This document shows positions 32,459-62,517 of a DNA stretch of 64,000 nt, one piece after another. The translations under genes were made by a program, and so were the position numbers. The DNA comes from a virus (Duplodnaviria; Heunggongvirae; Uroviricota; Caudoviricetes). How positions within the stretch are numbered: position 1 is the stretch's first letter; each line of letters opens with the position of its first letter. The notes under the pieces are model-generated. The model ran no database searches and was not told the origin of the DNA. It worked only from the letters and a program-made list of their open reading frames with translations. The stretch spans positions 20,856 through 84,855 of IMG/VR virus record IMGVR_UViG_3300042691_014730; one strand, written 5' to 3'.

Positions 32459-32488
32459 ACTATACCACATTTTAAGAAGTTTGTCAAG
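32459..32488 (-). promoter_or_regulatory. sigma70-like promoter TTGACA-N18-TATAGT
   Basis: gtactataccacattttaagaagtttgtcaag, nearly identical to P2 across the -10 region. Confidence 0.6.
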
Positions 32489-36361: not shown

Positions 36362-36390
36362 ACTATATCACACTTTTTAAATTTTGTCAA
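36362..36390 (-). promoter_or_regulatory. sigma70 consensus promoter TTGACA-N17-TATAGT
   Basis: Reverse complement reads gttgTTGACAaaatttaaaaagtgtgaTATAGTaa. Confidence 0.65.
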
Positions 36391-38223: not shown

Positions 38224-38252
38224 TACTATATCATACTTTTGTTATTTTGTCA
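38224..38252 (-). promoter_or_regulatory. sigma70 consensus promoter TTGACA-N17-TATAGT with TGn extended -10
   Basis: Reverse complement reads TTGACAaaataacaaaagtatgaTATAGT. Confidence 0.65.
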
Positions 38253-38560
38253 AGCATTTTAATTGCTTCTCCTAAACCTAGAATGATAACAACGTCTGTT
38301 TCATCTAATTGAATAGCGACAGTGACGGGATTTGAACACATTGTTGCTGCTTTTATTGGTGAGTAACTGAGTATATTGCCATCTATATCTTTTACTGGAT
38401 AAGGACACCCTACTAATCTTTGACAAATATTCATTTTAGCTTCCTTTTGGATAGATTTTAATATACTCATGTTATTTATAATTGTTTCTTTTGATATTTG
38501 ATTAACTCCAAATCCTGAATTTGTATAAATCTTTTTACTTTTTTCTGGGAGTTCACTCAT
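38231..38560 (-). CDS. hypothetical protein
   Basis: 109 aa. Confidence 0.35.
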   Translation of the reverse strand: MSELPEKSKKIYTNSGFGVNQISKETIINNMSILKSIQKEAKMNICQRLVGCPYPVKDIDGNILSYSPIKAATMCSNPVTVAIQLDETDVVIILGLGEAIKMLDKITKV

Positions 38561-40075: not shown

Positions 40076-40270
40076 TTATTTACAATTATCTTCTGCTTCT
40101 TGTTTAGTTTCGTAATATGTCTGACTCAAGTGTTTAATTCCATAGTTTTCACCAGAATAATATTTGAGACATACCCAAGCTCCTTCTTTAGGATATACCC
40201 AATAATGCCATGAGTACCGATTTGCACATGAGGTTACTATTAAAGGTAATATTATAAAAATTATATTCAT
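40076..40270 (-). CDS. small lipoprotein
   Basis: Signal peptide with lipobox-like LIVTSC. Confidence 0.4.
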   Translation of the reverse strand: MNIIFIILPLIVTSCANRYSWHYWVYPKEGAWVCLKYYSGENYGIKHLSQTYYETKQEAEDNCK

Positions 40271-40551
40271 TATAAGCCTCTTCTTTGTTTGTAAAAATTT
40301 ATTGCATTTAATTCTTTTTCATCAAATTGAAATAAATGAAATTCACTTTTGGAAGTTTCATCAATTTGCATACTACAAATAGGTACATAATTCCCAGTTT
40401 TTTCATCATGCCAAGCAGTAGCATTAACATATTTCATTTTCATTTCATTACCAATTGCAACGCACTTATTTGAAAATTCAGTCATGTCAATTGCCCTAGG
40501 AACTTTTTCAGAACAACCAATTAATAATAACAATACTAAAAATTTTACCAT
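40270..40551 (-). CDS. lipoprotein
   Basis: Lipobox LLLIGCSEK. Confidence 0.4.
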   Translation of the reverse strand: MVKFLVLLLLIGCSEKVPRAIDMTEFSNKCVAIGNEMKMKYVNATAWHDEKTGNYVPICSMQIDETSKSEFHLFQFDEKELNAINFYKQRRGL

Positions 40552-40561
40552 ATACTACCTT

Positions 40562-41119
40562 TTACCAACTAACATCCATATTACTATCTACAGTAAAATG
40601 ACAATTACTTCCATCTGTAGTCATGTAATTTCCTTGAGGTAGGACTGATAGATACCTATTTCCACCTACTTCAAAATATGCTACAAGTTTGTTACTGTTT
40701 GTCCTAATCAATACTTCATCGTATCCGACAGAATCTCCACAAGGATCAACTAACTCTGCTACAGATTCTTCTGTCTTTTCTTCTACTAATTCAGTTAACT
40801 CCACTATATCATTGTTTACGGAATTTTGTAAGCTATTTATAATAGATAATATGTTATTATACATACTATCATTCGAATCTCCTATAACATCCAGCTCGTT
40901 ATATAGTGAGTTTATTTCGTTTATATTATCTTGTATACTGAGTTCAAGAGCGTCGATTCTAACGTTGATCTTATCTATCTCTTCGTCTTGGTCTGAGTTT
41001 TTTCTATCTAAATGTTTAACGTCTTGATCGTAATTAGCACCAATTAAATCTCTAGTATATTGCTTTAAACCTTCGTTTCTACCACATGATACTAATAAAA
41101 TAAACATTAAAAACTTCAT
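40562..41119 (-). CDS. lipoprotein with coiled-coil region
   Basis: Lipobox ILLVSCGRN followed by a coiled coil. Confidence 0.45.
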   Translation of the reverse strand: MKFLMFILLVSCGRNEGLKQYTRDLIGANYDQDVKHLDRKNSDQDEEIDKINVRIDALELSIQDNINEINSLYNELDVIGDSNDSMYNNILSIINSLQNSVNNDIVELTELVEEKTEESVAELVDPCGDSVGYDEVLIRTNSNKLVAYFEVGGNRYLSVLPQGNYMTTDGSNCHFTVDSNMDVSW

Positions 41120-41543: not shown

Positions 41544-42755
41544 TTAATGAAAGTCAGTATTATCTTTATCCAAATAAGCCTCAGAAATCCATTTTAATGA
41601 CTTTCTAGAGTTAGGACAAGATGGGTTATTATAATCTACTACAGATTTAATCACAATACCTTCTCGTATCTTTTGTGACGGACAATATACTGAATCACCT
41701 TTAGTAAGTTCGTACGCTTGTTCTTTATTAAAAGGTCCAGAGTATAAAGTAGGAACGATATCAAATCCTCGTTCTTTAGCGTACTCTTGTACCTCTAGTG
41801 GGTTTAACCATCTAGTAGAACCGTCTTCATTTAAAATCTTTACATCAAATAATACGAAGTGATGTTCGTTTTTAAATCCGTAATCATAGTTCTTTTGAAT
41901 GCCATGACCTATTAACTCTCCAAATATAGTTTCGTTTGGTTTAATCTTTTCATTAGCTTTTACTTTTTTAAAAACAGCACCGTAAACATCTTCTCCATAG
42001 AATCCAGTATATCCAACTCTGTTGGTTAATTCAACGTTATTAGAACCATAACAAAATTCGTATTTAGGTAATAGTCCTAGTGTATTCTTAATCGATCTTA
42101 AAAACATATTAAGACATGACAACAGAATACTTTTTCTTTCATTAGGTCTAGTTTTTAATAGTTTTAAAGCTGATAGTATTTCCTTAATAGAAGGAACTAC
42201 AGTAGGTAAGTAAGAACAACGTGCGTTACTACCATGTAACTTCTCTTGTATTACTACAATCTCACCTTCTTCGAATAAGTTAGGGAACCATTTAATGTTC
42301 TCAAGTCCGTTGAACTTATGGAACAATGGATTCTCTAGTGGTTTATTTCTAGAAGTCTTTACTGAAACAGAAAACGATGGAGCAGGAGGTTCATACTTAA
42401 CTATTCCTAGTTTCTCTGAAACGTCGTCTTCTTCGTTAATGTTTGATATATTAATTAAGTCTTTAACTTCGTCTAAGTTAATTAACATTCCCTGAGAAGG
42501 GAAGTTTCTGATTCGTATTTGTTTAACTCTGGACTTATGTAGTTTGATTTTACTTCCTTCTGGGAAGAGTTTAGACTCTAGTGAAGGAGGTAGAACTGAA
42601 TCAATAGGAACGTATAATACTGAGTCTCCTACTTTATACTTGTCTTTCTGAATAACTACTTGGAAACCATAAACTGTCGCTACCTCTAGTTTCTCCGCAT
42701 TAAAGTGAGGAGTGATGTTAATGATTTTAGTTAAAGGTACTTTAAATAGTGACAT
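41544..42755 (-). CDS. Rnl2-like RNA ligase (nucleotidyltransferase superfamily)
   Basis: Motif I EKLHGSN resembles Rnl2 KIHGTN. GGAGGG RBS. Gene has its own promoter. Confidence 0.5.
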   Translation of the reverse strand: MSLFKVPLTKIINITPHFNAEKLEVATVYGFQVVIQKDKYKVGDSVLYVPIDSVLPPSLESKLFPEGSKIKLHKSRVKQIRIRNFPSQGMLINLDEVKDLINISNINEEDDVSEKLGIVKYEPPAPSFSVSVKTSRNKPLENPLFHKFNGLENIKWFPNLFEEGEIVVIQEKLHGSNARCSYLPTVVPSIKEILSALKLLKTRPNERKSILLSCLNMFLRSIKNTLGLLPKYEFCYGSNNVELTNRVGYTGFYGEDVYGAVFKKVKANEKIKPNETIFGELIGHGIQKNYDYGFKNEHHFVLFDVKILNEDGSTRWLNPLEVQEYAKERGFDIVPTLYSGPFNKEQAYELTKGDSVYCPSQKIREGIVIKSVVDYNNPSCPNSRKSLKWISEAYLDKDNTDFH

Positions 42756-42866
42756 ATCCCTCCAGATATAAAAGAGTCAGGTAGCTAATCAGATACTGTC
42801 CGAAATGACTTTACTAGCATTTTGGTTCGAATCCATAACTAACAGTCGTGACCTGAACTCTAATTG

Positions 42867-42896
42867 ACTATATCACGTTTTAACGATTTTGTCAAG
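42867..42896 (-). promoter_or_regulatory. sigma70-like promoter TTGACA-N18-TATAGT
   Basis: Reverse complement reads TTGACAaaatcgttaaaacgtgaTATAGT. Confidence 0.6.
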
Positions 42897-42923
42897 CATT
42901 ATTTTTATCTAGTAAGTGTTATA

Positions 42924-43340
42924 TTAAAAATTTATGCTAATTGCATGTGAAGTTATTCCAAGCGATATAATATTTTCTAGTTTAAGCTCATAATTTTCAT
43001 TTTTATATAATGACATTTTAAAATTAGCCCCTAACACTGGTGTTATACCATAAACAGATGGAGGCATAATGTCCAATTCTTTAAATTCTTTAAAATTTGT
43101 ATTATATCCACCAAACACAAAATCAACATCGTCAGTAATTTTGGTAGATGTTACGGCACCAGTTATTTCACCGCACGCTGAGTCTCTACCTTTTAAAATT
43201 CCTGCTTTAAATTCTTCATCGCCGACCATACCTATAACGTATTCGTTGTGAATAGTTCCGTAATTATTGACAGTATTACAATAAGGCAAGCTGGGTGCAA
43301 GATAATGATTAGTTATACCGCCATAAATTATAGTTATCAT
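42924..43340 (-). CDS. hypothetical protein
   Basis: 138 aa. Confidence 0.3.
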   Translation of the reverse strand: MITIIYGGITNHYLAPSLPYCNTVNNYGTIHNEYVIGMVGDEEFKAGILKGRDSACGEITGAVTSTKITDDVDFVFGGYNTNFKEFKELDIMPPSVYGITPVLGANFKMSLYKNENYELKLENIISLGITSHAISINF

Positions 43341-43816
43341 ACTTTAATATAAACTACTATTTCGTTTTCACCAATAACTTCATTTATAATCTTTTCAATA
43401 ATATTCCAATCTCCACCACCTAACCCTGCTCCGATCTTAGGAATAGCTACTGTCTTACCACGATCTAAATATTTCTCTTTAAGTTTAATAAAGCAATCTT
43501 GTATTGCTTCATAGTCAACATACTGTTTTCCATCATACCCATAATTCTCTTGTGTGAAACAGTTTACTATTGTACGGTTTGGTGCTACTTTAATCGGTTG
43601 TATCATTCCTAATAATATTCCTTCTCCAAATCCCATTGACTTATAGTGTTCACATAATCCGTGATAACTACCTTTCACGATTGGATATCTTTCAGTTATT
43701 GTTTTAGCTAATCCTGAGCCAAACTTACTCTGACAGTTTACTCCATGAGCTATAATCTCACAGTCTGTATTAAATAGATCACCTTGTACGTATTTCAACA
43801 TAATCATAACCTCCAA
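43337..43816 (-). CDS. macro domain protein (ADP-ribose binding or processing)
   Basis: VQGDLFNTDCEIIAHGVNCQSKFGSGLAKTI and IPKIGAGLGGGDW match the macro domain GDIT / hhVNAAN / GxGGV and PxIGxGxxGG motifs. Confidence 0.65.
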   Translation of the reverse strand: MEVMIMLKYVQGDLFNTDCEIIAHGVNCQSKFGSGLAKTITERYPIVKGSYHGLCEHYKSMGFGEGILLGMIQPIKVAPNRTIVNCFTQENYGYDGKQYVDYEAIQDCFIKLKEKYLDRGKTVAIPKIGAGLGGGDWNIIEKIINEVIGENEIVVYIKV

Positions 43817-43961
43817 AACTATTTTCTACTTGTTTTAATTGAAATCCAAACCTAGTTAATATTTCTGCTAGTGGTTGAGATGGATTGTATATCCTTCCAT
43901 TCTGGATACTAGCATATAATAGCTCTAGTACTTCTTCCTTTGTAATTTGTTCTGTTTTCAT
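43779..43961 (-). CDS. hypothetical protein
   Basis: 60 aa. Confidence 0.3.
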   Translation of the reverse strand: MKTEQITKEEVLELLYASIQNGRIYNPSQPLAEILTRFGFQLKQVENSFGGYDYVEIRTR

Positions 43962-44854
43962 TAAAAATCTCCATAATTGACTTGCAGTGTTCTTATATTT
44001 TTATTTCTAAGCATCTTTACTACTTGATCTCTGTCATCTAGTGCGAACTTAATATTGTATTTAGGTAAGATTTCATAATCTAGCAGTATACTCTTCACTA
44101 AATCGTCTCTTCTAAAATCTCCTCTGCTTCTCATTACTAATTCATCAAAGGGTATGTTATTATTTTGTAACCAAGTAGTTGTTAATGTTCTATAATCATC
44201 TGGTCTTCCAGAACAAAGTACTATTTTAGTTCCTTTTTCTTTATAAGTTCTCAGTATATCAACGATATCCTCATAAACCAAGTCATTTATCATATCGTCA
44301 AAGAATCCTTTCCAGTTTTTCTTACCTTCACCGTGTACATGATGTAATCTTTGATCTATATTAGCGATTGTACCGTCGATATCACAGTATATTGCATCTG
44401 GTTTGACTTTTTCGCTGTATTTCTCCGTTAAAACGTTGTCTGCTTCGTCCTCAGTAATGTATTCATACTTACTGAAGAACGTGTTTAAAGCGTTTATGGC
44501 GTGTTTAGACGATGTTATCGTAGGATGGTTTAACCTACATTTCATTCTACTGAAACAAACGCTTAAAGGAACAATAATGTTGTGAATACTTGTAGTATAA
44601 CCTAGTTCTTTTGCTGGCTTTAGGTATCGTTCACGTTGTTGTTTACTAAAATTCATTCGGTCTACTACAATATCGTCTTGTCGTTCTAAAGCTTCTTTAA
44701 ATAATTTTAAATGACCTTCCTTGCCTTGATCGTCTTGCGATATTCTAGTATATCCTATGTAACTTTTACTAAGAGATGACTTACCTGATCCAGGAGGTCC
44801 AACTAATAACACTATGTTTTTCATTCCTTGTCCTCCCATTCTATTAGAAAACAA
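43961..44854 (-). CDS. pnk: polynucleotide kinase / 3'-phosphatase (T4 Pnk-like)
   Basis: N-terminal P-loop LLVGPPGSGKSSL. C-terminal HAD phosphatase motif IYCDIDGTIA (DxDGT). Confidence 0.65.
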   Translation of the reverse strand: MFSNRMGGQGMKNIVLLVGPPGSGKSSLSKSYIGYTRISQDDQGKEGHLKLFKEALERQDDIVVDRMNFSKQQRERYLKPAKELGYTTSIHNIIVPLSVCFSRMKCRLNHPTITSSKHAINALNTFFSKYEYITEDEADNVLTEKYSEKVKPDAIYCDIDGTIANIDQRLHHVHGEGKKNWKGFFDDMINDLVYEDIVDILRTYKEKGTKIVLCSGRPDDYRTLTTTWLQNNNIPFDELVMRSRGDFRRDDLVKSILLDYEILPKYNIKFALDDRDQVVKMLRNKNIRTLQVNYGDF

Positions 44855-45183
44855 GTCTTTTCTTTTGCTGTTTTTATAATTTTTTTAAGTGATGTAAATT
44901 GTATCTTATCTAAAACACTACACACTACAAATAAAACAGCTCCAACTAAACAAATAAATATAACTATCATTCCAAATTGAGAATGGGTTTTATAATATGA
45001 ATCTTCTGGGTAAGAGATAAATAACGTACCTATTGCTAAAAAAACACAAATTAATGAAAATAATGTATGAAGTGAAATAACAAACGTCATAACAGTTAAT
45101 ATTATTAATTGACATGTATTATTCGGTTCACATTGTGTCCAAAATTTTATAAACTTATATAACAAACCTTTTTTTAATCTCAT
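44821..45183 (-). CDS. membrane protein
   Basis: 120 aa with three or four hydrophobic helices. Confidence 0.35.
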   Translation of the reverse strand: MRLKKGLLYKFIKFWTQCEPNNTCQLIILTVMTFVISLHTLFSLICVFLAIGTLFISYPEDSYYKTHSQFGMIVIFICLVGAVLFVVCSVLDKIQFTSLKKIIKTAKEKTCFLIEWEDKE

Positions 45184-46077: not shown

Positions 46078-46385
46078 AAAAAAAAGCGATAGCTCGCCAC
46101 CCTAACAACTTGTACCATAGTGTGTTACTCTATCGCACTCTTTCAACGTTACTACCGTTTAACAGATGATACGTTCTGTAGTGAGGTGAACTTTACTCTA
46201 AGCTATAACTTTGTGTAGGTAATTAAACGAAAGTATCTTCCGCCCCTTCCAACCCATAATTCGCTTAGACCAACGTTTCATAAACTACCGTAGTTCACTG
46301 CTGGGGAATTACTTTGCCTTCTAGTCAAGCTCATTTAAAGACGAAGTGTTTATCATGCTCCACCTTGACTTGGACTCACTGAGGT
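46078..46385 (-). ncRNA. candidate structured RNA (about 300 nt), GC-rich, bracketed by promoter P7 and a hairpin/U8 terminator
   Basis: No ORF. GC content is clearly above that of the flanks. Promoter at 46387-46416. The - strand reads GCGATAG-N37-CTATCGC followed by UUUUUUUU. Internal direct repeat CAACGTT...ACTACCGT occurs twice. Confidence 0.3.
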
Positions 46386-46386
46386 T

Positions 46387-46416
46387 ACTATATCATATTT
46401 TAAGAAATTTGTCAAG
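46387..46416 (-). promoter_or_regulatory. sigma70-like promoter TTGACA-N18-TATAGT
   Basis: Reverse complement reads ccTTGACAaatttcttaaaatatgaTATAGTaa. Confidence 0.6.
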
Positions 46417-48894: not shown

Positions 48895-50391
48895 TTAAGC
48901 TGAAATTTTTTGCTCTTTTAATGTTTTTCGTATATTAGACAAAGTATCGTTGAATAAAAAGTTACCATTAATAAAAATAGGTTTCAACAAATCTTCTTTA
49001 GTGTTAGTTAGTGTTGTATCATCTGAGTATTCTAAAATCCCTTGATCATTTTTAAACACTTTTACTTTACCCTTAGCCGAGTTCTTGGTTCCATCATCTG
49101 TTTTAGGTGCTTTAAATATAGCCTTTTCTGTTCCATTAATTGTAACAGATGTTGCCTTCATTGCAAATCCTAATGTATCTCTAGTGATGTATTGATAAGT
49201 ATAAGAACCAATTCCTAGTACAACGTTAGTTGAAGCGAATCCTTTTTGTTTTAATCTTTCACAAATTTCCTTGCATCTAGTAATTGTGATTGAATCTCCG
49301 TAGATAGCTCCTACTTTTGGATTTAGTAGTTTGAATCCTTGCGGCGTTACTGATCCTCCGAATGTTTCGTAAAGTAATTCAATAACACCTTTGCTCTCAG
49401 ATGAACCAGGTTTAGCTTCAGGGTCACCACAAAGAATATTTACTGGATCACCGCTATCTGGTCGGATAACTACTTTATCTAAAGAGCCTTCTCCTCCGTT
49501 ACGAGCAAGGATAGATTCTTTTAATGAAGGAATAATATTTGTCATTACATTCCATAAATCCCATGTATCTGAAACAATAGATACAATTCCTGTTGGATAT
49601 AAGTCTTCAATAAATCTTCTATATGTTTCTCTTTCATCTTCATATCCTCCAGCACACATACAACTGTGTTCTGAAGCGGGAACCGAGCATCCTACTAGTT
49701 CTTTAGTAACGTCTGCGCCATAATACTGTTCAGCGTATGAGATGGCTGGTAATGTGTCAGTTCCTACAAACGAAAGTAAATGACCTACTCCTGATCTAGC
49801 TGAATCTTCTGGACCACTTTGACCTCTCATAGAAAAGTCGTGTCCTTGGAATTCTACTCCTGCTGTAGAGCCTGTTGTTTGTAAAGCATAATCATCTAAT
49901 ATACTTCTGTATGTGTGAGCAATGCTTGCCGTTGTAGAAGGCTTCCATAGTAGGGAAGATAGAATCGTTTCAAGATAATTAGTTACCCAAAAGAATTCAG
50001 GCTTTGTGTTTTCGATAGTCATCATTGGAACACGATATGGTACTAGAGTACCTTCCTTCAGAGACTTAACTTCAATAGGTAGAAATCCCAAATCGTGTAA
50101 ATCTTCAATGTGTTTTGTTTCAACGTTCGGATTAAATAAATAAGCACTTACTTGTCTTTTGTACTCAATAATTACTTCTTCTTTTGAACGATTGAAGAAC
50201 TGTTTATTAAACAAATCATTAACTTCTTTTAATGCCCCTTGAATACCAAAACAAACTACGTTCTTAATTTCTGGAGCATGCTTTCCAGATCGAGGAATCC
50301 ATGTACTGTAAACGTTTGTAGTGCCTTTTGGGTACTGAATTCTGTGACTAAGTTTATATCCATCAGCTGCTAATGTTGCAATTAAATTCAT
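48895..50391 (-). CDS. nadV: nicotinamide phosphoribosyltransferase (NadV-type NAMPT)
   Basis: N-terminal LAADGYKLSHRIQYP resembles the NAMPT DSYKxxH signature. About 500 aa. Own consensus promoter. Confidence 0.65.
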   Translation of the reverse strand: MNLIATLAADGYKLSHRIQYPKGTTNVYSTWIPRSGKHAPEIKNVVCFGIQGALKEVNDLFNKQFFNRSKEEVIIEYKRQVSAYLFNPNVETKHIEDLHDLGFLPIEVKSLKEGTLVPYRVPMMTIENTKPEFFWVTNYLETILSSLLWKPSTTASIAHTYRSILDDYALQTTGSTAGVEFQGHDFSMRGQSGPEDSARSGVGHLLSFVGTDTLPAISYAEQYYGADVTKELVGCSVPASEHSCMCAGGYEDERETYRRFIEDLYPTGIVSIVSDTWDLWNVMTNIIPSLKESILARNGGEGSLDKVVIRPDSGDPVNILCGDPEAKPGSSESKGVIELLYETFGGSVTPQGFKLLNPKVGAIYGDSITITRCKEICERLKQKGFASTNVVLGIGSYTYQYITRDTLGFAMKATSVTINGTEKAIFKAPKTDDGTKNSAKGKVKVFKNDQGILEYSDDTTLTNTKEDLLKPIFINGNFLFNDTLSNIRKTLKEQKISA

Positions 50392-50868: not shown

Positions 50869-51723
50869 TTATTTAATATTAATAAACGGAATAGCGTTGC
50901 TTCCTGTCATGGTCGGTAACTTACCATCCCATCTTTGGATGGCTTCATATTGAATAAGTTCAGATGTTAATGTTTTTAACTTTAAAGCGTTTGATTTAGA
51001 CTCAGCTTCAGCAATAGCGATCATTGATTTAGCTCTACCTTCTGCTTCAGCGATTTGTTTCTTAGCTTCTGCCTCTGCTTCTCTTAACTCATTCTCTCTT
51101 TGTTGAGCACGTTGTGTAGCTTCGATCTTAGAGTTCAACGCATTAACTACGTTGCTAGGTAATCGAATAGAACCGATTAAATAAACCTTTTCAATTAAGA
51201 TTCCGTTACTCTTTAAGTTAGTTCTTACAATCTCTTCTACCTTAGAAAATAACTCTGCTTTACCTGATCCATATACTGATTCAACATTCATCGTAGAAGC
51301 TACAGTATTTAGAGCGTCTCTAATAGCATTCTTTACTACAATAGATTTAATCTCATCAATGCCCTTTCTATACTTTTGAAATAACTTACTAATTTTTTCA
51401 GCGTCAACACTAAAAGTTACACCAACGTCAATGTTACAAGAAAGACCTTCTTGTGTTTGAAATGTAAAAGATTCATCTGTTTCCGAATCCTCTTGTTCAT
51501 CAGCTGTATATACTTTTGTTTGTTGAAAAGTAGGGAAGATGTATAGTTCTTCATTAATACCAATGAAGTATCTACCTACTCCAAGTACTTCGTGATCTAC
51601 CCCTTTGTCTTTTCCTAGTAAATAAATCTTGACTCCGACGTTTCCTGCTGGAACTTTAGAACATGATGTTGTTAGTGTTACTCCTAACAGAATAACAAAA
51701 GCTAACGTAATAAATCTAATCAT
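50869..51723 (-). CDS. SPFH (band 7 / stomatin-prohibitin-like) lipoprotein
   Basis: Lipobox LTTSCSK. Ala/Glu-rich EAEAEAKKQIAEAEGRAKS...IQRWDGKLP segment typical of SPFH or HflK/C. Confidence 0.6.
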   Translation of the reverse strand: MIRFITLAFVILLGVTLTTSCSKVPAGNVGVKIYLLGKDKGVDHEVLGVGRYFIGINEELYIFPTFQQTKVYTADEQEDSETDESFTFQTQEGLSCNIDVGVTFSVDAEKISKLFQKYRKGIDEIKSIVVKNAIRDALNTVASTMNVESVYGSGKAELFSKVEEIVRTNLKSNGILIEKVYLIGSIRLPSNVVNALNSKIEATQRAQQRENELREAEAEAKKQIAEAEGRAKSMIAIAEAESKSNALKLKTLTSELIQYEAIQRWDGKLPTMTGSNAIPFINIK

Positions 51724-52477
51724 TAATTTCTCCTTTATAAGTAAAGATTCGGTTAATACCTGAATCTCTTAATGTTTGAATACCTTTAGTAAATAATCCA
51801 TGTGATACATACAAATCAACATTCGATACTTTGTGTTTATTTAATAATTGTTCAGCGACTAATTTAAATGTTCCTCCTCCATCACATAAGTCGTCAACAA
51901 TTAAACATCTCTTATTTGTTAAATCTTCTTTGGATAATAAATCCATTCCAATAATGTTACCAGTTAATTGATCTCTTGTTTTTTCGAAATAGACTTTAGT
52001 ATGGTTTGGTAAATAGTATCTTAAACTTGCTCCTTTGTCTGGGTATACTATAATATCTGCATCTGTTTTAATGAACGTGTGTTTTATTATTTCGTTAGGC
52101 AATACATTCACAAACCTTTTTATACCGTGGTTATTTGAATGTACATCTACACTCGATACTTTATTAAAGTTAAAAGAATTAATTATGTTAGAGAAAGCTT
52201 GAAGACCAAACGTTGTATTATTACTAACCTCTTTATCTTGTCTGGCATAAGGTAAATAAGGAATAAACAGTTCACCTCGTTTTTCTTCAATACTACCGAT
52301 CAATAATCGTAACTGACAAACGTTTATTAATTCCGCTTCGTTTTCAAACTGCCATCTTATTTCGTTATAATATGAGTTTCTGATTTTAGAATAGACTTCA
52401 TCTGGAAGTTTCCATACTTGACTACATTTATCTGGGAACATAGTTGGTTTGACTAGGTATCCATTAATATATATCAT
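51716..52477 (-). CDS. phosphoribosyltransferase-domain protein, probably PRPP synthetase-like
   Basis: PRPP-binding loop CLIVDDLCDGGGTF. Directly upstream of SPFH and two genes from NAMPT. Exact family uncertain. Confidence 0.45.
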   Translation of the reverse strand: MIYINGYLVKPTMFPDKCSQVWKLPDEVYSKIRNSYYNEIRWQFENEAELINVCQLRLLIGSIEEKRGELFIPYLPYARQDKEVSNNTTFGLQAFSNIINSFNFNKVSSVDVHSNNHGIKRFVNVLPNEIIKHTFIKTDADIIVYPDKGASLRYYLPNHTKVYFEKTRDQLTGNIIGMDLLSKEDLTNKRCLIVDDLCDGGGTFKLVAEQLLNKHKVSNVDLYVSHGLFTKGIQTLRDSGINRIFTYKGEIND

Positions 52478-53864: not shown

Positions 53865-54440
53865 TTATCTCCTTAGTTGATATTCAAATCTTAGTTTATG
53901 TTTCTGTTTAATTACTTTAGCTTTACCTTCTTTTATAAGTTCTTGAAACTTAATTGCAGCTTTAGTATATTCTCCGTTCAGTTTAGCATATAGTTGTCTT
54001 ATGTGTACTTTCTTTCCATCGTCCAACAATAGTACTCTAGGATTAGGAGTTTTTTCTGCTCCAGTAAATACGAAGTTACTGGCTTTATATATTGTTCCAT
54101 TGTGTCCGACATTAGGATCGGTGTACGATAATACATACGGAGGAGTATCTAGTTCTTTAAGAAGTCTTAATGTCTTCCCTAAGAAGAAAGACTCTGTATT
54201 CTTTTGTGTATTATCTATTAAACAGAAGCGTCTTAATTCTATATACTTATCATTATCAACATTAGTACCCATTGGTTGTCCGTATATTGCAACACCGACT
54301 AGAGTGTTATCGTGTGTTCTTAACGTAAAGACGTGCTTTTGTTTTAGCGATCTATATGATTTAGAATAGTGCCATTGAACAATGAAGTCCATGATCTCCA
54401 CACTTAAAGCTTCCTCTTCAACTTTATATATATCTTTCAT
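53865..54440 (-). CDS. hypothetical protein
   Basis: 191 aa. Confidence 0.35.
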   Translation of the reverse strand: MKDIYKVEEEALSVEIMDFIVQWHYSKSYRSLKQKHVFTLRTHDNTLVGVAIYGQPMGTNVDNDKYIELRRFCLIDNTQKNTESFFLGKTLRLLKELDTPPYVLSYTDPNVGHNGTIYKASNFVFTGAEKTPNPRVLLLDDGKKVHIRQLYAKLNGEYTKAAIKFQELIKEGKAKVIKQKHKLRFEYQLRR

Positions 54441-54642
54441 CTACTATTCTCCATTTCTTTAATTGTTCTTTTATACTTAACAATTTAGTAAATTCAAATC
54501 CTCCGTCACACATTAGTTTATTATTTTCTATATATAGATAATCATGTTTTAACCAGTCAGAAGCTTGTACTTTGTGTCCTTGTTCCATCTTTTCTAAAGC
54601 TTCAATGAATGTCATCCACTTTATTTTTTTATTATTTTTCAT
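54424..54642 (-). CDS. hypothetical protein
   Basis: 72 aa. Confidence 0.3.
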   Translation of the reverse strand: MKNNKKIKWMTFIEALEKMEQGHKVQASDWLKHDYLYIENNKLMCDGGFEFTKLLSIKEQLKKWRIVDERYI

Positions 54643-54875
54643 GTAACCTCACCTATTTTAATAAAAGTATTTTCACAATTGAAGTTAAATTTGAAAGAAT
54701 TTTCATCCCAATCATTACGTGAACTCCGACAGCATAAATATTTTACTTCAACAATATTATTTTCATAAATGTTTTCTATGTAAACAAGTCTTGTTTGTTT
54801 AAAAATACCATCAAGGTTAACCCACATATATAATCCACCAACAGATAAGTCGTTAATATCTTTGACATATTGCAT
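54639..54875 (-). CDS. small paralog-family protein (member 1)
   Basis: Shares hVGxhYhh N-terminal and hKIGEV C-terminal motifs with the 55256-55990 genes. Confidence 0.35.
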   Translation of the reverse strand: MQYVKDINDLSVGGLYMWVNLDGIFKQTRLVYIENIYENNIVEVKYLCCRSSRNDWDENSFKFNFNCENTFIKIGEVT

Positions 54876-54984
54876 TTTGTCCTCACTTTTTACTTGACAA
54901 AAGTTTAATTGTGTGTTACAACTATTATGCGACGTTCGAAAGAACCATAAAGTTCAGTCGCAAAGTTATTATGAAACGTTTGAT

Positions 54985-55254
54985 TTAAGGGATAGTGTGT
55001 TTGAAGTTATCTACGAACTTAACACCTAATGACTCTAAGTATTGTCTGATCTCTTCTTTGGCTTTCTTTAAAGATTTATAAGATGTCTTATGAATGTTGA
55101 TGAACGAGTCAACATTGATGACTTCTCTAATTGCGTAAGTTCTATTTTGTAGGTTAATACATATGTAGTATATCGTTCCATTAACCATAAAGTCTTGACT
55201 AAAAAGGAACGTAGATTGTTTCTTATATACTATTTTAGTTGGAGATGGATTCAT
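54985..55254 (-). CDS. hypothetical small protein
   Basis: 89 aa. Confidence 0.3.
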   Translation of the reverse strand: MNPSPTKIVYKKQSTFLFSQDFMVNGTIYYICINLQNRTYAIREVINVDSFINIHKTSYKSLKKAKEEIRQYLESLGVKFVDNFKHTIP

Positions 55255-55255
55255 T

Positions 55256-55510
55256 TTAAAACTCCAATGAATAAATATGATCTTCTAAAGAAAGATGTTG
55301 GTCATTTATAACTTGACTTGTTGTAATAAACGAGTGCTTTCCATCAATTGAATCTAAAGCTAATAGATAATTATCACTATCTAAAGAAGAAGGAGTTCCT
55401 CCTCTATATATACAAAGAGTAATATCTATCATAAAATCCTTTTGCACGTCTTTAGCATATAAATACAATTGACCTTCCTTTAATTCAAAAGGGTATGTTA
55501 TTCTTTTCAT
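55256..55510 (-). CDS. small paralog-family protein (member 2)
   Basis: LKEGQLYLY motif. Confidence 0.35.
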   Translation of the reverse strand: MKRITYPFELKEGQLYLYAKDVQKDFMIDITLCIYRGGTPSSLDSDNYLLALDSIDGKHSFITTSQVINDQHLSLEDHIYSLEF

Positions 55511-55752
55511 ATAACTTCTCCTATTAGATAAAGTTCATCTTTTGTAGAATCTTTGTATTCTTCATTTAAGAAAGAAGAACAAGTACTATCTAATGATCTA
55601 GTGTCCAGTCTTCTTAGTTGAACTGTATCAATTAATATCTTTTCTACTTGAACAAGTAAAACGTTTAATAACTTTTCAGAATGACAGTTACGTAGAAATA
55701 AGTATACACTTCCTACTTTAAGCTTATTAACTTCTGTTATTTTATTCATCAA
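55507..55752 (-). CDS. small paralog-family protein (member 3)
   Basis: LKVGSVYLF ... LYLIGEVI. Confidence 0.35.
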   Translation of the reverse strand: MMNKITEVNKLKVGSVYLFLRNCHSEKLLNVLLVQVEKILIDTVQLRRLDTRSLDSTCSSFLNEEYKDSTKDELYLIGEVI

Positions 55753-56896: not shown

Positions 56897-56930
56897 AATG
56901 ACTCACACACAGTTGTTAATGTTAATAATT

Positions 56931-57979: not shown

Positions 57980-58523
57980 ATTGAATTCCTTTTATAACTT
58001 GACATACCTTATTCAATGTTTCTTTATTTACATCTGTACATAGATACTTACAAACATCTGTTAAGTCTTGTAATAAATAATCTTCTAAATAAAATTGTAT
58101 TTCATTATTTAAAATCTTTAACAATTTTCTTGTGTCTCTTTTAATAAGATAATACTGATTAATTTTTTTATCCTGTGGTAACCAATCGTATAGTAATATT
58201 AAAGCCCCAGCATGAGCCAATATTTCTTCGTGTAATACATCAACTTCTTCTTTTAATTTATTTAAAGTTATTCTATTTAATCTATTAAACCTACCAGTCG
58301 AATGTATTATTTCATGAACTAAAGTAATTTGTGCCCAATATCTATTTAATAACATTTCATTATTTAATGCTATAATATCTAAAGGTATTAGATATTTACC
58401 ATATGCATTGATCTCATTTGTAATTATAATTTTAGGGAGATTTATAGTATTTAATGCTAGAGTATTGTTCATTGCTTTATTAAGCTCGACGATTGATTGA
58501 TCCATTTGTTCCCCTTTGTTCAT
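57960..58523 (-). CDS. HExxH zinc-metallopeptidase-like protein
   Basis: ITLVHEIIHSTGRFNRL. Overlaps the ATP-grasp gene (translational coupling). Confidence 0.4.
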   Translation of the reverse strand: MNKGEQMDQSIVELNKAMNNTLALNTINLPKIIITNEINAYGKYLIPLDIIALNNEMLLNRYWAQITLVHEIIHSTGRFNRLNRITLNKLKEEVDVLHEEILAHAGALILLYDWLPQDKKINQYYLIKRDTRKLLKILNNEIQFYLEDYLLQDLTDVCKYLCTDVNKETLNKVCQVIKGIQYESIQN

Positions 58524-59274
58524 TGATGTATTGAACTATATTGTTTACCCATATATCTAAATTCAAAGAGTTAAGTCCAGGACTTGAATTAACTTCTATT
58601 ACATAGAATCGTTTCTTATCTCTGTCGAATATAATATCGACACCACCGAATAGTAACCCTAATCCTTGTACTGCTTTAATACACATTTGTTGTGCATTAT
58701 AATTACAAGTAGATATTTCTGGATTACATTTTCTGAACTGACAGTTATGTGATTTATATATTTTAACATTAGAATCATTTGGTATCTTCTCGTAAACACC
58801 TAATATCTTACCATTAAATACATGAACTCTATACTCTTTCTTATTACTAATAGGTCTAGTAATGTATAGATCATTAGGTCTAAGTTGGTTATCATATCTA
58901 ACCACCATGTCTCTACCTCTAACATAGAAGTAACCAGATGAATCTTTAAATCTTTCAATATCAAATGTATTTCTATCGCCTTCAATTAAATCGAAATACT
59001 GGGGAGTTCTAACACCTTCTATTAACTTAAGACTCTTTAACATATAATGTTTGTTAGATGCTTTCTTAACAGCTAGTCTATCATTTAATGTTAATGTCTG
59101 ACCACTATCAGGAGTTCTACTTTCTCCCCAACGAATTGTAACGGCTGATTGTTTTGGTGTCATGTATTCTCTAACTCTTCTAACTCTACTGAATAGTCTA
59201 GAGTTTTTAAGTTTTAAATATAATGACTTACCTGTCTTACAGGATTTGTTTGAATAACAAAAATTAATAAACAT
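58480..59274 (-). CDS. ATP-grasp ligase (RimK / glutathionylspermidine-synthase-like)
   Basis: C-terminal FYVIEVNSSPGL is the characteristic ATP-grasp E-x-N...PG motif. Product about 260 aa. Confidence 0.55.
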   Translation of the reverse strand: MFINFCYSNKSCKTGKSLYLKLKNSRLFSRVRRVREYMTPKQSAVTIRWGESRTPDSGQTLTLNDRLAVKKASNKHYMLKSLKLIEGVRTPQYFDLIEGDRNTFDIERFKDSSGYFYVRGRDMVVRYDNQLRPNDLYITRPISNKKEYRVHVFNGKILGVYEKIPNDSNVKIYKSHNCQFRKCNPEISTCNYNAQQMCIKAVQGLGLLFGGVDIIFDRDKKRFYVIEVNSSPGLNSLNLDIWVNNIVQYINEQRGTNGSINRRA

Positions 59275-59452
59275 AACAATCTCCTATTTTTTTATATCTA
59301 TTTGAATGTGGACCAAGCGTAGATGAGTAATGATCGAATCCATTACAAGCCGCAGTACTCCAATAAGTATAATAATTATAGTATGCTCCTGATTCCCTTT
59401 TCTCAAAAAGAACTAGTCCTTTAAATACTATATCAAAATATAATTCAATCAT
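59264..59452 (-). CDS. hypothetical protein
   Basis: 62 aa. Confidence 0.3.
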   Translation of the reverse strand: MIELYFDIVFKGLVLFEKRESGAYYNYYTYWSTAACNGFDHYSSTLGPHSNRYKKIGDCYVY

Positions 59453-59684
59453 TTTTTACCTCACATATAAGTTTCAATAACTCTCCTTTAACAAACCTAG
59501 AGTATCTCCTGTCGTGTATTTCAAAATCAGATGTTCCAACATTACCCAAATAATAATACTGTATAATATCAGCCATAGGGTCAACACTTAAAACAATCAC
59601 TAATCTATTTAGATTATTAGCAGAAAAGAAATTACCATATTGGTTACCTTTTGTTGTTAAGTATAGACAGTTTGGTTTATACAT
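59445..59684 (-). CDS. hypothetical protein
   Basis: 79 aa. Confidence 0.3.
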   Translation of the reverse strand: MYKPNCLYLTTKGNQYGNFFSANNLNRLVIVLSVDPMADIIQYYYLGNVGTSDFEIHDRRYSRFVKGELLKLICEVKND

Positions 59685-59685
59685 A

Positions 59686-59934
59686 TTATCCTCTTTTTGA
59701 TTTTAACTGACCATCTTTTGTTAAAGTTATATTATCTTTAATAAGTTGAAGTACTGTACCAATTGCTTCATATTCATCTGAATTAAAAAAGTCCCACTGT
59801 TCTTCTGATATAATACCAGTTTCTTGAAAATCATACATATTATCAGCTAATGTGTACATATCTTCAATTGCTTTATCTAATGCTTCCAATAACTTATCAT
59901 TTGATAATGTAACCTTTTCATTATTTATTTTCAT
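59686..59934 (-). CDS. hypothetical acidic protein
   Basis: 82 aa. Confidence 0.3.
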   Translation of the reverse strand: MKINNEKVTLSNDKLLEALDKAIEDMYTLADNMYDFQETGIISEEQWDFFNSDEYEAIGTVLQLIKDNITLTKDGQLKSKRG

Positions 59935-59943
59935 ATGTTCTCC

Positions 59944-61044
59944 TTAGTATTGAATGCTATAAGGTTGACTATCACTCATGTAAGCATCATATAATAGTTG
60001 CATCTTTGTCTCATAATCTAAACTATTTAATACGTTTTGTTCGTCACTAGATAGTTTAAGAAAGTATTCATTTAATGTAGATGCTATTTTATTAATTTCT
60101 AGTATATCAACTTTAGTTTTCTTAACATCAGAGTATTTAGAATCCGAGGCTTCTTCGTTATTATACAACCAGTTATATGATTGACTATGGTTTTCTTCCC
60201 ATCTGTTTCTGCTAGAGGATAACCTCCGTGACCTACTTGATGTAGTCCAATTAGTTGAAATTGTTCTAGTAATGTCAGTGACTGAAATAGGTTCTCCAGT
60301 AATTGCATCTACTCTTAGTAACTTGTTATCATACAGTGGGAAACATCTAGGCTTTTTCCAATTAAGTTTATCACAAGTATTCTTAATAATATCATCACTT
60401 GTACAGATAACCATGCCACCTAACTCTTCTACTTGAGCCAAGAATAAAGGGGCATTATTTTTAAATACATCTAATATACTTCTACCATCTGATTGTTTAG
60501 ACAATACAGCTACTCCCCAATAACCTTGTAAAGCATCTGTTGTTTCCTGAATCTTAGCTTGATTATTCTGAACATCATTCTTAAGATATTCATTTAAGAT
60601 TGTTTCAGAGTCACAAGTTGAAATAACATTTGTTAATGTATGTGAGTTATTAATAATACCATTGTGAATTAAAGCAGTATTACCTATAATAAAAGGGTGT
60701 ACATTTTCAAATGTCCTAGCACAAGTTGCGAATCTTGTATGATAGATAATAGATTTAACATCTTCAAAATTCACAACACCAGTTGTAGAATATTCAGTTG
60801 GTTCTAATTGTGTAGGAACTTGTTCTTTAAGAACACCCTGATATTTAGCTACTTCAGTTAATGGTTTAACAAATGCTTTCTCTACATTTAGAAATCTTTC
60901 AGAGAACATATTACCTTGTCCATCAATTGCGGCATAACCTAATCCATGACTATCTGATTTAGTCATATCAGCTTTAGATGCAACCATAAATTTTCTAGCG
61001 TTCAATCCGTTCTTAATACCAAACATCACCATAACTTTACACAT
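59944..61044 (-). CDS. class II (Ntn) glutamine amidotransferase-like protein (YafJ/GATase_4-like)
   Basis: Starts MCK (Cys2 nucleophile position). DSHGLGYAAIDGQGNMF and HTRFATCARTFENVHPFII resemble the NGDGFG and H.R.AT.G....N.HPF motifs. Confidence 0.5.
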   Translation of the reverse strand: MCKVMVMFGIKNGLNARKFMVASKADMTKSDSHGLGYAAIDGQGNMFSERFLNVEKAFVKPLTEVAKYQGVLKEQVPTQLEPTEYSTTGVVNFEDVKSIIYHTRFATCARTFENVHPFIIGNTALIHNGIINNSHTLTNVISTCDSETILNEYLKNDVQNNQAKIQETTDALQGYWGVAVLSKQSDGRSILDVFKNNAPLFLAQVEELGGMVICTSDDIIKNTCDKLNWKKPRCFPLYDNKLLRVDAITGEPISVTDITRTISTNWTTSSRSRRLSSSRNRWEENHSQSYNWLYNNEEASDSKYSDVKKTKVDILEINKIASTLNEYFLKLSSDEQNVLNSLDYETKMQLLYDAYMSDSQPYSIQY

Positions 61045-61053
61045 ACTTACTCC

Positions 61054-62517
61054 TTATGCAAATGCATTAATATTGTTATTAATATAATCTAAAGATGTCT
61101 GAGGAATATTTTCAATATAATTAGGAATCGTTTCAACTTTTCTTGGAGCAGATTCTAATTTAGTTGATTTGTTTACAATAGGTAATAAGAAGTTAATCCA
61201 GTTACTAATCTCAATACAATCAACAGTTCCTTTATGTACTCTAATCTCTAATGTTTTATGACGAGCATAAGACATAGGATTAATAACTAAATATCTTTCT
61301 GATCTACCTCTATGTCCATCTTTATATGAATATTTTTCAATATCAGCAAATTCAGTTGGCTTACAATATGTATTGCTTCTACGTTCAATAGGTTGTGAAT
61401 CAATTAAAAACTTTTGCATCTTAACTAAATTATGAAACGCAGTAGCAACATCTCTATTTCTCATATCTAAATGAACGTGAAGACCACAAGAACTATTAAC
61501 TGAACATTTAGCATCTTGTAATGCAACTCCTAATTGTTTAAGAATATCTTCTCTCTTAGATTCAGGAAGCAACACTCTAATTTCATGTGTATAATTATAT
61601 CCATCTGAAGTTCTTAATGAACCATCGGAAGTAACATTTGTCCACTTTTGGAGCTTATGTTTAATGAGAATATTTTTAAGCTCAGTAACGTCTGACTTAG
61701 AAATTAATTCAATTTCAATACCAATAAAGTTTTCACTATTGAAAGGAACTTTCTCGTCATTAATATAGTTGGATTGAATGTGGTTATATAATTTCAGATA
61801 CTCTTCTGGTTTAGAATGTACCTTACCTAACAAGGTAACTGAACCAAATTTATTTTTAATAACTTTCTCAACTAATTTCTTAGAAGCACGTTCCTCTCGG
61901 ATTAAAGAATTTAATGCGACAAAAGCTTTTAACTTTGCATTCTTTAAATCTTTTTTAATAATATCCTTTCCTGCTTCATTGACTGAAATAGTTGGCATCG
62001 GAATACTGATCTCTTTCTTAACTCCATTAACAATTCGACTAGCTTGTACAAAGATTTCAGCGTTTAATATGTTACTAATCTTAGCTCTGTTTTCTCTGAT
62101 CTTAGTAGATAAAGTAGACTCCTTATCTTTAGAACCTTTAAGCTTTAACTTCTGCTGTTGTCTATCTAAGTCTTCTAGCTTTTTTGTATCTCTTAATAAA
62201 GTAAATAACATTGTATTTTTATTATCACTCTTATTAACAATTCTAATCTTAAAGTCTTTAGGATAAATAACTTTTTCATACCTACTAAACACTAGATTAT
62301 CTTTTAGTACAATGAACTGAGTACCGACTGGAACTTTAATTTTCTTAGAGTCAACAGTAATTATTACATCTTCGTATGTTTCGATTGTACAATACTTATC
62401 ACTTAAACTATACTCACCAATGTATTTAACTTCTTTGTTTAAAAAGAATGTACCTAGTTTGTTGTCTCTGTCCTTTGCAATTTTGTAAATACTTCCTAAT
62501 TCTAATTTTGTTGACAT
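61054..62517 (-). CDS. amidoligase-like (glutamine synthetase / GCS2-fold) protein with a novel N-terminal domain
   Basis: C-terminal half contains GIEIELIS (G-x-E-x-E), CGLHVHLDM (H-x-H) and RYLVINP...EIRVHKG, consistent with the Amidoligase_2 / carboxylate-amine ligase fold. Recalled from memory, not searched. Confidence 0.4.
   Translation of the reverse strand: MSTKLELGSIYKIAKDRDNKLGTFFLNKEVKYIGEYSLSDKYCTIETYEDVIITVDSKKIKVPVGTQFIVLKDNLVFSRYEKVIYPKDFKIRIVNKSDNKNTMLFTLLRDTKKLEDLDRQQQKLKLKGSKDKESTLSTKIRENRAKISNILNAEIFVQASRIVNGVKKEISIPMPTISVNEAGKDIIKKDLKNAKLKAFVALNSLIREERASKKLVEKVIKNKFGSVTLLGKVHSKPEEYLKLYNHIQSNYINDEKVPFNSENFIGIEIELISKSDVTELKNILIKHKLQKWTNVTSDGSLRTSDGYNYTHEIRVLLPESKREDILKQLGVALQDAKCSVNSSCGLHVHLDMRNRDVATAFHNLVKMQKFLIDSQPIERRSNTYCKPTEFADIEKYSYKDGHRGRSERYLVINPMSYARHKTLEIRVHKGTVDCIEISNWINFLLPIVNKSTKLESAPRKVETIPNYIENIPQTSLDYINNNINAFA

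Follow-up and report, generated by a model that had tools for sequence, protein, structure and literature searches.

The DNA analysed here, referred to as the window, is a stretch of 64,000 nucleotides (nt) from a tailed phage (IMG/VR record IMGVR_UViG_3300042691_014730, positions 20,856 to 84,855), and our analysis concerns its minus-strand segment 41544-44854, which encodes a predicted polynucleotide kinase-phosphatase (Pnkp), a macro-domain protein and a predicted ATP-dependent RNA ligase. Pnkp and the ligase, which by its sequence is assigned to the Rnl5 and not to the Rnl2 family, form a conserved two-gene module in phages, and the macro gene lies outside the core of this module. With a probability of roughly 55% we interpret the locus as two separate counter-defence functions side by side, i.e. 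RNA repair by Pnkp and Rnl5, and action of the macro protein on a soluble derivative of ADP-ribose (ADPR). All enzymes are of known kinds; only their arrangement is lineage-specific.

The segment is part of a long early/middle gene block with a GC content of ~30% in the genome of a freshwater phage of ~85 kb, ~20 kb of which extend beyond the window. Upstream, the block carries genes for ribonucleotide reductase (RNR) and for NAMPT-like, SPFH and PRPP-synthetase-like (PRS-like) proteins; downstream, it carries DNA polymerase, primase-helicase and exonuclease genes. A first-pass annotation of this DNA had reported the Pnkp, macro and ligase genes, and all three were recovered on the minus strand with the macro gene between the other two. 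It had taken the interval to hold these genes alone, whereas there are five open reading frames (ORFs), two of them, of 60 and 138 amino acids (aa), having been overlooked. In the order of transcription these are:

43961..44824 (ORF 44854..43961), minus strand: Pnkp, predicted T4-type 5'-kinase/3'-phosphatase, 287 aa from the ATG at 44824
43779..43961, minus strand: 60-aa ORF separating Pnkp from the macro gene, also predicted as a gene on a public contig
43337..43801 (ORF 43816..43337), minus strand: macro-domain protein of 154 aa, PHROG 335, candidate Adpp-like
42924..43340, minus strand: 138-aa ORF, predicted 8-stranded beta-barrel, lineage-specific insert
41544..42755, minus strand: predicted Rnl5-family ATP-dependent RNA ligase of 403 aa, OB module plus nucleotidyltransferase domain

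The kinase-phosphatase and RNA ligase pair

Gene neighbourhoods were compared in 80 ligase-centred and 80 macro-centred viral loci (numbered with the prefix L), whose ORFs were searched with the proteins of the window, the RNR gene serving as control. Pnkp lies ≤600 nt from the ligase in 8 of the 80 ligase-centred loci, the RNR control in none (0/80), and these 8 loci are found among the 10 closest relatives of the ligase. The macro gene is located between Pnkp and the ligase in none of the paired loci (0/8); it is 6.7-7.6 kb away in two of them. Thus, Pnkp and Rnl5 constitute a real, conserved two-gene module, with the macro gene outside its core.

The order Pnkp-macro-ligase was found only in the window phage and in a related 84-kb phage (L004/L009), in which the macro protein is 67% identical and the Pnkp and macro genes overlap directly. 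That the macro gene lies between the two others is best explained by a lineage-specific rearrangement and is not taken as the sign of a three-enzyme pathway. As the macro gene holds this position in this lineage alone and the ligase has a candidate promoter of its own (see below), the claim that the trio represents one functional and transcriptional unit was abandoned. Two other clusters combine similar genes: L081, an independent lineage, groups PRS-like, macro, phosphoesterase, Rnl5, HNH and Pnkp genes, and Acinetobacter phage phiAbaA1 groups Rnl2, Adps, Namat and macro genes with a PseT-like fragment. At the nucleotide level, the sole match of the 4.5-kb region among GenBank phages is a 70-nt patch within the macro gene, shared with Acinetobacter phages, and a peptide-pattern search of IMG/VR for close relatives of Pnkp confirmed none.

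Both halves of Pnkp are readily recognised in Pfam, with AAA_33 at 7.5e-14 and HAD_PNKP at 3.8e-35 over the full profile, and the protein matches PHROG 505 (polynucleotide kinase) at 8e-52; its closest solved structures are Capnocytophaga Pnkp1 (4xrp) and T4 Pnk (1ltq). Individual residues were assessed in an alignment with T4 Pnkp, whose residue roles are reportedly known from mutagenesis, and with four phage homologues. The kinase half contains the P-loop GPPGSGKS (T4 K15, S16), D31 (T4 D35) and R93/R97 (T4 R122/R126), all of them invariant. The phosphatase half contains DIDGT, i.e. D148-x-D150-G-T, followed by R159, R207, D236 and D263-D264, which correspond, in the same order, to D165/D167, R176, R213, D254 and D277/D278 of T4; only T4 Arg38 has no aligned equivalent (2-residue deletion). 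Pnkp is thus predicted to be a T4-type bifunctional kinase and HAD phosphatase, in line with the P-loop and DxDGT motif noticed at first pass, and all phosphatase residues are present.

The ligase passes the NCBIfam equivalog model TIGR02306 (RNA_lig_DRB0094) with 175.9 bits (cut-off 151.15), the match extending over positions 6-341 of the 341 of the profile. Its best match in the PDB is NgrRnl from Naegleria gruberi (5cot, 2.5e-13, both domains), with NgrRnl residues 15-128, the OB domain, aligning to ligase residues 13-126 (i-E 5.9e-9). Pfam recognises RNA_ligase (3e-24) and an N-terminal PHA02142 OB domain (2.5e-13, residues 8-92). K172 of motif I (KLHGSN), E280, E365-G366 and K388 of motif V are invariant in 12 ligase homologues, and the C terminus follows 15 residues after K388, i.e. 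there is no domain after motif V. An insertion of ~55 aa after motif I (residues ~180-235) is shared with the close relative, is shorter in sister phages and is absent from NgrRnl-like homologues. The ligase is therefore placed, on the strength of these profile and motif matches, in the Rnl5 (DraRnl/NgrRnl) family. Its earlier description as an Rnl2-like enzyme with a KLHGSN motif holds as far as an ATP-dependent RNA ligase and motif I are concerned. The Rnl2 identity itself was rejected: the ligase fails TIGR02307 (24 bits versus 197, with 70 residues matched), T4 Rnl2 in the PDB matches at 1.3e-5 and over residues 275-343 only, and the C-terminal domain of Rnl2 is absent. The first-pass annotation had also considered that the protein might turn out to be the replicative DNA ligase, but no Pfam DNA ligase family matches at an E-value of 0.01, no DNA ligase chain of the PDB at an E-value <1, and the OB domain is the N-terminal module of Rnl5.

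Based on these assignments we infer how the pair might act. Pnkp would phosphorylate 5'-OH ends and remove the 2',3'-cyclic phosphates or 3'-phosphates left by metal-independent host ribonucleases, and the ligase would join the 3'-OH and 5'-PO4 ends so produced via a lysyl-AMP at K172. The probable substrates are breaks whose ends are kept aligned by RNA secondary structure, e.g. in tRNA or rRNA, as known Rnl5 enzymes seal duplex nicks and strictly require RNA at the 3'-OH end (PMC5397189, PMC4408790). Phage homologues of DraRnl have been on record since 2007 (PMC1807946), but the physiological role of Rnl5 has been described as uncharted or unsettled (PMC5397189). Hence, of the proposal that the locus is the classic countermeasure against anticodon nucleases, the conserved repair pair stands, whereas its equivalence to the response to PrrC is an analogy only. 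A tRNA scan detected no tRNA gene in the window, and Rfam yielded nothing, neither on the whole window nor, with permissive settings, on 41.0-46.6 kb.

Alternatively, Pnkp and Rnl5 might serve DNA replication or repair of the phage, acting at RNA-primer nicks or at DNA breaks with 3'-phosphate and 5'-OH ends. The pair is encoded within a replication and nucleotide block (RNR, DNA polymerase, primase-helicase, exonuclease), no dedicated DNA ligase was detected among the minus-strand ORFs scanned with PHROGs or Pfam, but the ~20 kb of the genome outside the window could encode such an enzyme. The pairing of Pnkp with an RNA ligase is the canonical arrangement for RNA repair in phages, as exemplified by T4, and this argues for RNA as the substrate. 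DraRnl tolerates DNA in the 5'-PO4 and template strands of the nicks it seals, and its loss renders Deinococcus radiodurans sensitive to ionising radiation (PMC5397189), but the requirement for an RNA 3'-OH end is strict in Rnl5 enzymes, and the close relative of the window phage also encodes RlaP, a nucleotidyltransferase (PF10127) named for its association with RNA ligases (PMC12776372). Taken together, we regard a role in DNA metabolism as improbable. The RlaP gene of the relative is located at L004 17023-18006, ~5 kb downstream of the ligase; no ORF of its size (~327 aa) is present in the syntenic stretch of the window.

The macro-domain protein and a possible link to NAD+ reconstitution

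The macro protein barely passes the Pfam Macro model (22.4 against a cut-off of 22) and matches PHROG 335, annotated as 'phosphatase', at 1e-43. A profile of its family retrieves from the PDB BT1257 (3e-29), SCO6735 (3e-22), MtbDarG (8e-20), Poa1p (1e-18) and TARG1 (1e-14). The AlphaFold2 model (pLDDT 91.5) superposes on BT1257, DarG, SCO6735, Poa1p and TARG1 with template modelling (TM) scores of 0.70-0.82 in Foldseek; as all these scores are similar, the structure cannot separate Poa1p-like, DarG-like and TARG1-like proteins. The protein has the conserved motifs HGxNC and PKIGAGLGGGDW. The macro domain recognised at first pass is thereby borne out, and the protein probably belongs to the TARG1/DarG/Poa1p/BT1257 structural class.

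The position of the catalytic Lys of DarG and TARG1 (TARG1 K84, DarG K80) is occupied by an invariant Gln and that of TARG1 D125 by a Gly, and the His equivalent to Poa1p H23 is invariant in the family. DarG models do match (PADLOC 2e-17, NCBIfam 2.5e-15), but the score of 56.6 bits for NF048014 is far below the curated cut-off of 250, and membership of DarG fails, with the catalytic Lys absent and a length of only 154 aa that leaves no room for the DarT-binding C-terminal domain.

These features bear on the possibility that the macro protein acts as a de-ADP-ribosylase in the manner of an orphan antitoxin, directed against marks of the DarT or CmdT type on DNA, RNA or protein and unrelated to both NAD+ salvage and the repair pair. 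Besides the DarG model matches and the superposition on DarG macrodomains (TM ~0.8), this reading draws on SCO6735, one of the closest solved relatives by profile, which we take to be a protein de-ADP-ribosylase with Gln at the same position. The macro family is, moreover, widespread in phages in which its gene does not lie beside the genes of the NAD+ reconstitution system NARP1. Orphan antitoxins have precedents in phages, namely AdfN, a NADAR and not a macro-domain protein (PMC11825919), and, reportedly, a DarG2-like macro protein of a chimallivirus (PMC13309987). The replacement of the glycohydrolase Lys and of the TARG1 Asp, the small size and the low DarG score speak against it, and comparative work predicts that phage macro domains act mostly on soluble ADPR derivatives (PMC9503650). 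We therefore consider a de-ADP-ribosylase rather unlikely.

A soluble substrate is suggested by a preprint of 2026 on NAD+-depleting defence. RES-domain defence proteins cleave NAD+ to nicotinamide and ADPR-1''-phosphate (ADPR-1''P), which phage NARP1, consisting of Adps and Namat, is unable to use; among 859 NARP1 operons of phages, 15% have a Poa1p-like macro gene no more than two genes away, and Adpp of Vibrio phage Gary (KNV71_gp137) converts ADPR-1''P to ADPR and is required against aRES defence (bioRxiv 10.64898/2026.01.28.702374). The window encodes candidates for both NARP1 enzymes 5 to 8 kb upstream of the macro gene:

51716..52477, minus strand: PRS-like protein, candidate Adps, 253 aa, PHROG 619 at 6e-57
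48895..50391, minus strand: NAMPT-like protein, candidate Namat, 498 aa, PHROG 448 at 1e-194, Pfam NAPRTase and NAMPT_N

The PRS-like protein scores below every NCBIfam cut-off for ribose-phosphate diphosphokinases, and its alignments do not extend to the ends of the profiles; a C-terminally short PRPS-like protein lacking the alpha11-alpha12 module is the published signature of Adps (PMC13586617). It is 30% identical to Adps of phiAbaA1, and the NAMPT-like protein, whose gene is 1.3 kb away, is 37% identical to Namat of the same phage. No NMNAT or Nudix gene was detected among the scanned minus-strand ORFs. The gene signature of NARP1, i.e. a short PRPS-like gene with a NAMPT-like gene nearby and, among the ORFs scanned, no NMNAT, is thus present. 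The sequence identity of the macro protein is 35% with its NARP1-associated counterpart in phiAbaA1 and 26% with Adpp of phage Gary (1e-11), and NARP1-adjacent macro proteins are scattered in the family tree, including branches near the macro protein of the window. An SPFH/Band-7 gene (51723..50869) and three small ORFs are located between the Adps-like and Namat-like genes, a layout that is kept in L004 (1334-5085); in L083 an SPFH gene follows 14 nt after the macro gene. To our knowledge, SPFH proteins have not been assigned any function in NARP1 operons.

Our best current lead, at roughly even odds and drawn from family membership and the literature, is that the macro protein is an Adpp-like phosphatase which serves NARP1 in trans. 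It would turn ADPR-1''P, the product of NAD+ phosphorolysis by RES domains, into ADPR, as Adpp and Poa1p do, and the Adps-like and Namat-like enzymes would then rebuild NAD+ from ADPR. Of the roles proposed for the macro protein at first pass, action on an ADPR-derived molecule thus stands, with ADPR-1''P as best lead, whereas the Lys of the DarG/TARG1 de-ADP-ribosylases is absent. The NARP1-like genes upstream had gone unnoticed in that annotation.

Several observations weigh against two independent functions with a NARP1-serving macro protein. The macro gene is 5.1 kb and ~10 ORFs away from the Namat-like gene and thus outside the published definition of an Adpp-containing NARP1 operon (NARP1-AP, ≤2 genes). 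The BLOSUM distance of the macro protein to Gary Adpp (0.805) is about that to human TARG1 (0.811), so that homology alone cannot transfer the function of Adpp. Neighbourhood counts, at first considered as evidence of NARP1 membership, had to be downgraded: among the macro-centred loci the neighbours within ≤600 nt are NAMPT (4/80), RNR (4/80), the ligase (3/80) and Pnkp (2/80), and a NAMPT-like or PRS-like gene immediately adjoins the macro gene in 6 of 80, but as the RNR control adjoins it as often as NAMPT the counts do not discriminate. Many phages carry the macro family away from NARP1 genes; no NAMPT gene is located within 10 kb in the sister loci L013 and L018-L020, and T4-like phages encode the macro protein by the gene of the valyl-tRNA synthetase modifier (tblastn). 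T4 itself is not known to carry NARP1. As to the independence of the two functions, the order Pnkp-macro-ligase has survived a divergence down to 67% identity between two phages, and L081 clusters macro, Rnl5 and Pnkp genes independently. Finally, the unsettled role of Rnl5 and the altered radiation survival upon loss of DraRnl (PMC5397189) make the repair half of this interpretation uncertain.

The same clusters may be read as a single RNA repair pathway of three enzymes, in which the macro protein would be a third activity that cleans ends or clears a by-product, either by stripping ADPR that a host ADP-ribosyltransferase has put on 5'- or 3'-phosphate ends of RNA, which would open these ends to Pnkp and the ligase, or by removing the ADPR-1''P or Appr>p of an NAD+-dependent 2'-phosphotransferase. 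The conserved gene order in the relative with its overlapping Pnkp and macro genes, the overlapping junctions from Pnkp to the 138-aa ORF, which suggest coupling, and the clusters of L081 and phiAbaA1 are consistent with such a pathway, as are the operon of D. radiodurans that encodes LigB, PARG and a polynucleotide kinase (PMC5397189) and the proposal of a KptA/2H/Macro wing of RNA repair (PMC9503650). Yet the macro gene is between Pnkp and the ligase in none of the 8 close-relative loci, its adjacency to the ligase and Pnkp does not exceed that of the RNR control, and the ligase has a separate candidate promoter. Pfam detected no KptA/Tpt1 or 2H phosphoesterase in 38 minus-strand ORFs of the window (24.7-63.9 kb, short ORFs excluded). 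After the action of a HAD phosphatase of the T4 type there is no 2'-phosphate to be removed at the expense of NAD+, so that an ADPR by-product is not expected. With the glycohydrolase Lys of DarG and TARG1 missing as well, we judge a three-enzyme pathway to be an improbable explanation.

A more specific idea holds that, besides Pnkp and Rnl5, the macro protein heals RNA ends as a third enzyme, acting on RNA whose ends or breaks bear ADP-ribose attached by an ADP-ribosyltransferase of the host defence or, in a weaker form, that these phages couple the reconstitution of NAD+ mechanistically to the repair of RNA. We would give either form only a slim chance; if true, it would explain why the macro gene is retained where it is, as well as the clusters in L081 and phiAbaA1.

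A related observation is that proteins of ~150 aa matching the HAD half of Pnkp only are encoded next to or near macro genes in L049 (9540-10001), L043, L056 and L071. The one in L049 directly adjoins the macro gene, a NAMPT-like gene being located at a distance of 3.6 kb, and in phiAbaA1 a 108-aa 'PseT' fragment lies near the NARP1 cluster. These stand-alone Pnkp-type phosphatases may act in ADPR or NAD metabolism.

Transcription, ligase leader and accessory genes

The trio had been thought to be driven from a single promoter, termed P6, and this view was not upheld, as the ligase has a promoter-like site of its own and the nearest such site for Pnkp is another one. The elements concerned are:

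46387..46415, minus strand: promoter-like site, the nearest of its family upstream of Pnkp, at the head of a packed string of ORFs that extends through the 138-aa ORF
44821..45183, minus strand: 120-aa predicted membrane protein (PHROG 944, membrane protein, 1e-5), the stop codon of which overlaps the Pnkp start
42867..42895, minus strand: promoter-like site upstream of the ligase, sigma-70 type with extended -10
42756..42866, minus strand: ligase leader of ~110 nt, from the -10 hexamer to the ligase start, highly conserved in comparison with the relative
32459-32487, 36362-36390, 38225-38253, 42867-42895 and 46387-46415, minus strand: promoter-like family of near-identical 29-nt sites

The sites 46415..46387 and 42895..42867 each match the sigma-70 consensus at 11 of 12 hexamer positions and have an extended -10, the ligase-side site reading TTGACA-17-TGATATAGT. 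All five near-identical sites, where 0.02 would be expected by chance, are on the minus strand and follow the pattern TTGACAAA-N4-TTAAAA-N2-TGATATAGT; a ribosome-binding site and a start codon follow within ~15 nt in three of the five, and long leaders follow in the other two. The ligase-side site is conserved in the related phage (L004). Since this site precedes the ligase, and promoter and leader are conserved in the relative, the ligase probably has its own promoter, whereas Pnkp and the macro gene would be transcribed in a unit that begins further upstream.

The gene junctions agree with this arrangement. Pnkp probably starts with the ATG at 44824. This codon shares the sequence ATGA with the stop codon of the 120-aa membrane protein, is preceded by GGAGGA 7 nt upstream and agrees with a public gene call of 287 aa; owing to this overlap the two genes belong to one transcription unit. 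The macro gene probably starts at 43801, according to public gene calls and the sequence. Pnkp and the 60-aa ORF are joined by TAATG, the 60-aa ORF and the macro gene overlap by 23 nt, and the macro gene and the 138-aa ORF share ATGA. This tight packing suggests that the four ORFs from Pnkp to the 138-aa ORF are translationally coupled; the gap from the last of them to the ligase amounts to 168 nt.

The ligase leader is 85% identical to that of the relative (L004 10494-10607), the ligase proteins being 71% identical, and it contains an invariant run of 31 nt, GACTGTTAGTTATGGATTCGAACCAAAATGC; its conservation exceeds that of the surrounding coding sequence. The last predicted hairpin encloses the Shine-Dalgarno sequence and the ligase start codon, and the leader may thus control translation of the ligase. 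The stability of the predicted fold is not significant (z = -1.2), and the two compensatory pairs come from two sequences only. Rfam gave no match for the leader, and exact-pattern scans of viral and metagenome collections returned the same relative and chance hits only. A tRNA-like T-loop element, considered for a time, was dropped as unsupported. Directly downstream of the promoter-like site 46415..46387, ~270 nt (46119-46386, minus strand) are devoid of ORFs; this region might act as a long leader or encode a small RNA, and it has neither a match in Rfam nor an alignment to the two L004 segments compared.

As both are absent from the related phage, the 60-aa and 138-aa ORFs are accessory inserts. 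The 60-aa ORF has no significant match in Pfam (one far below the cut-off), PHROG, PADLOC or NCBIfam. The product of the 138-aa ORF is predicted by AlphaFold2 (pLDDT 84) to be an eight-stranded beta-barrel without a significant match in the PDB. Its family ends in Phe and has an invariant His, Asp-Ser, two Cys and Asn-Thr-Asn; the 24 homologues (49-96% identity) are all unnamed and are encoded on freshwater phage contigs beside unrelated genes, none of them within the 160 macro- or ligase-centred loci. A role as fourth component of the system was rejected in view of these unrelated contexts and the absence from the relative.

Elsewhere in the window, 53865-62517 may represent a DNA hypermodification cluster. 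It contains a Mom-like DNA modification gene (54440..53865, minus strand) and, at 58480..62517 (minus strand), ATP-grasp/RimK-like, glutamine amidotransferase-like and amidoligase genes, upstream of which lies the Mom-like gene. Downstream of the ligase (40270-41119, minus strand), several small ORFs start with lipoprotein-like signals, e.g. MKFLMFILLVSCG and MVKFLVLLLLIGCSE, which suggests a set of phage-encoded lipoproteins.

Implications and comparison with known systems

The analysis corrects a plausible misannotation, from Rnl2 to Rnl5, and adds a conserved phage Pnkp-Rnl5 pair, while what Rnl5 ligases do physiologically is still called uncharted. It also reveals a macro gene of the Poa1p/Adpp class in a genome that has NARP1-like genes, yet outside the NARP1 operon; if this gene encodes an ADPR-1''P phosphatase, operon-based counts of NARP1-AP (15%) underestimate the phages that counter NAD+ phosphorolysis of the RES type. 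The label 'anti-defence islet' given to the locus at first pass is reasonable, and we interpret the cluster as fitting a counter-defence strategy in which the damage is repaired, i.e. NAD+ is rebuilt and RNA is re-ligated.

Like T4 PseT, which together with RNA ligase acts against PrrC, Pnkp has the P-loop kinase first and the HAD phosphatase second, and its gene is paired with that of an ATP-dependent RNA ligase, to which it is adjacent in related phages. The systems differ in that the ligase is Rnl5 here, whereas T4 has Rnl1, used on the anticodon loop, and Rnl2; the window is devoid of tRNA genes. With DraRnl (DR_B0094) and NgrRnl the ligase shares an architecture in which the N-terminal OB domain is joined to a nucleotidyltransferase domain with little sequence beyond motif V; the ligase of the window is longer (403 aa versus ~340 aa) and has the ~55-aa insertion. 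The operon partner of DraRnl is a DEDDh-like protein; the partner here and in the near relatives is Pnkp.

The macro protein resembles DarG and TARG1 in its fold, its ADPR-binding loops and its weak matches to DarG models, and differs from them in having Gln in place of their catalytic Lys and Gly in place of the TARG1 Asp. With Adpp and Poa1p it shares the PHROG 335/Poa1p-like macro class and the His corresponding to Poa1p H23, and the NARP1-associated macro proteins of the preprint likewise have Gln at the position of the glycohydrolase Lys. As in phage Gary, Adps-like and Namat-like genes are present in the genome; the Adpp genes of NARP1-AP operons are, however, no more than two genes away from NARP1, and here the gene is located in the Pnkp operon.

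The gene triad can finally be compared with the operon DR_B0100-DR_B0099-DR_B0098 of D. radiodurans, in which a protein of the ligase type, an enzyme that hydrolyses ADP-ribose and a polynucleotide kinase are likewise encoded together (PMC5397189). That operon is bacterial and radiation-induced, its LigB is a minimal ligase-like protein without demonstrated joining activity, its hydrolase is a PARG and its kinase a different one. Although all three protein families differ between the two triads, this operon is the closest precedent for the triad as such.

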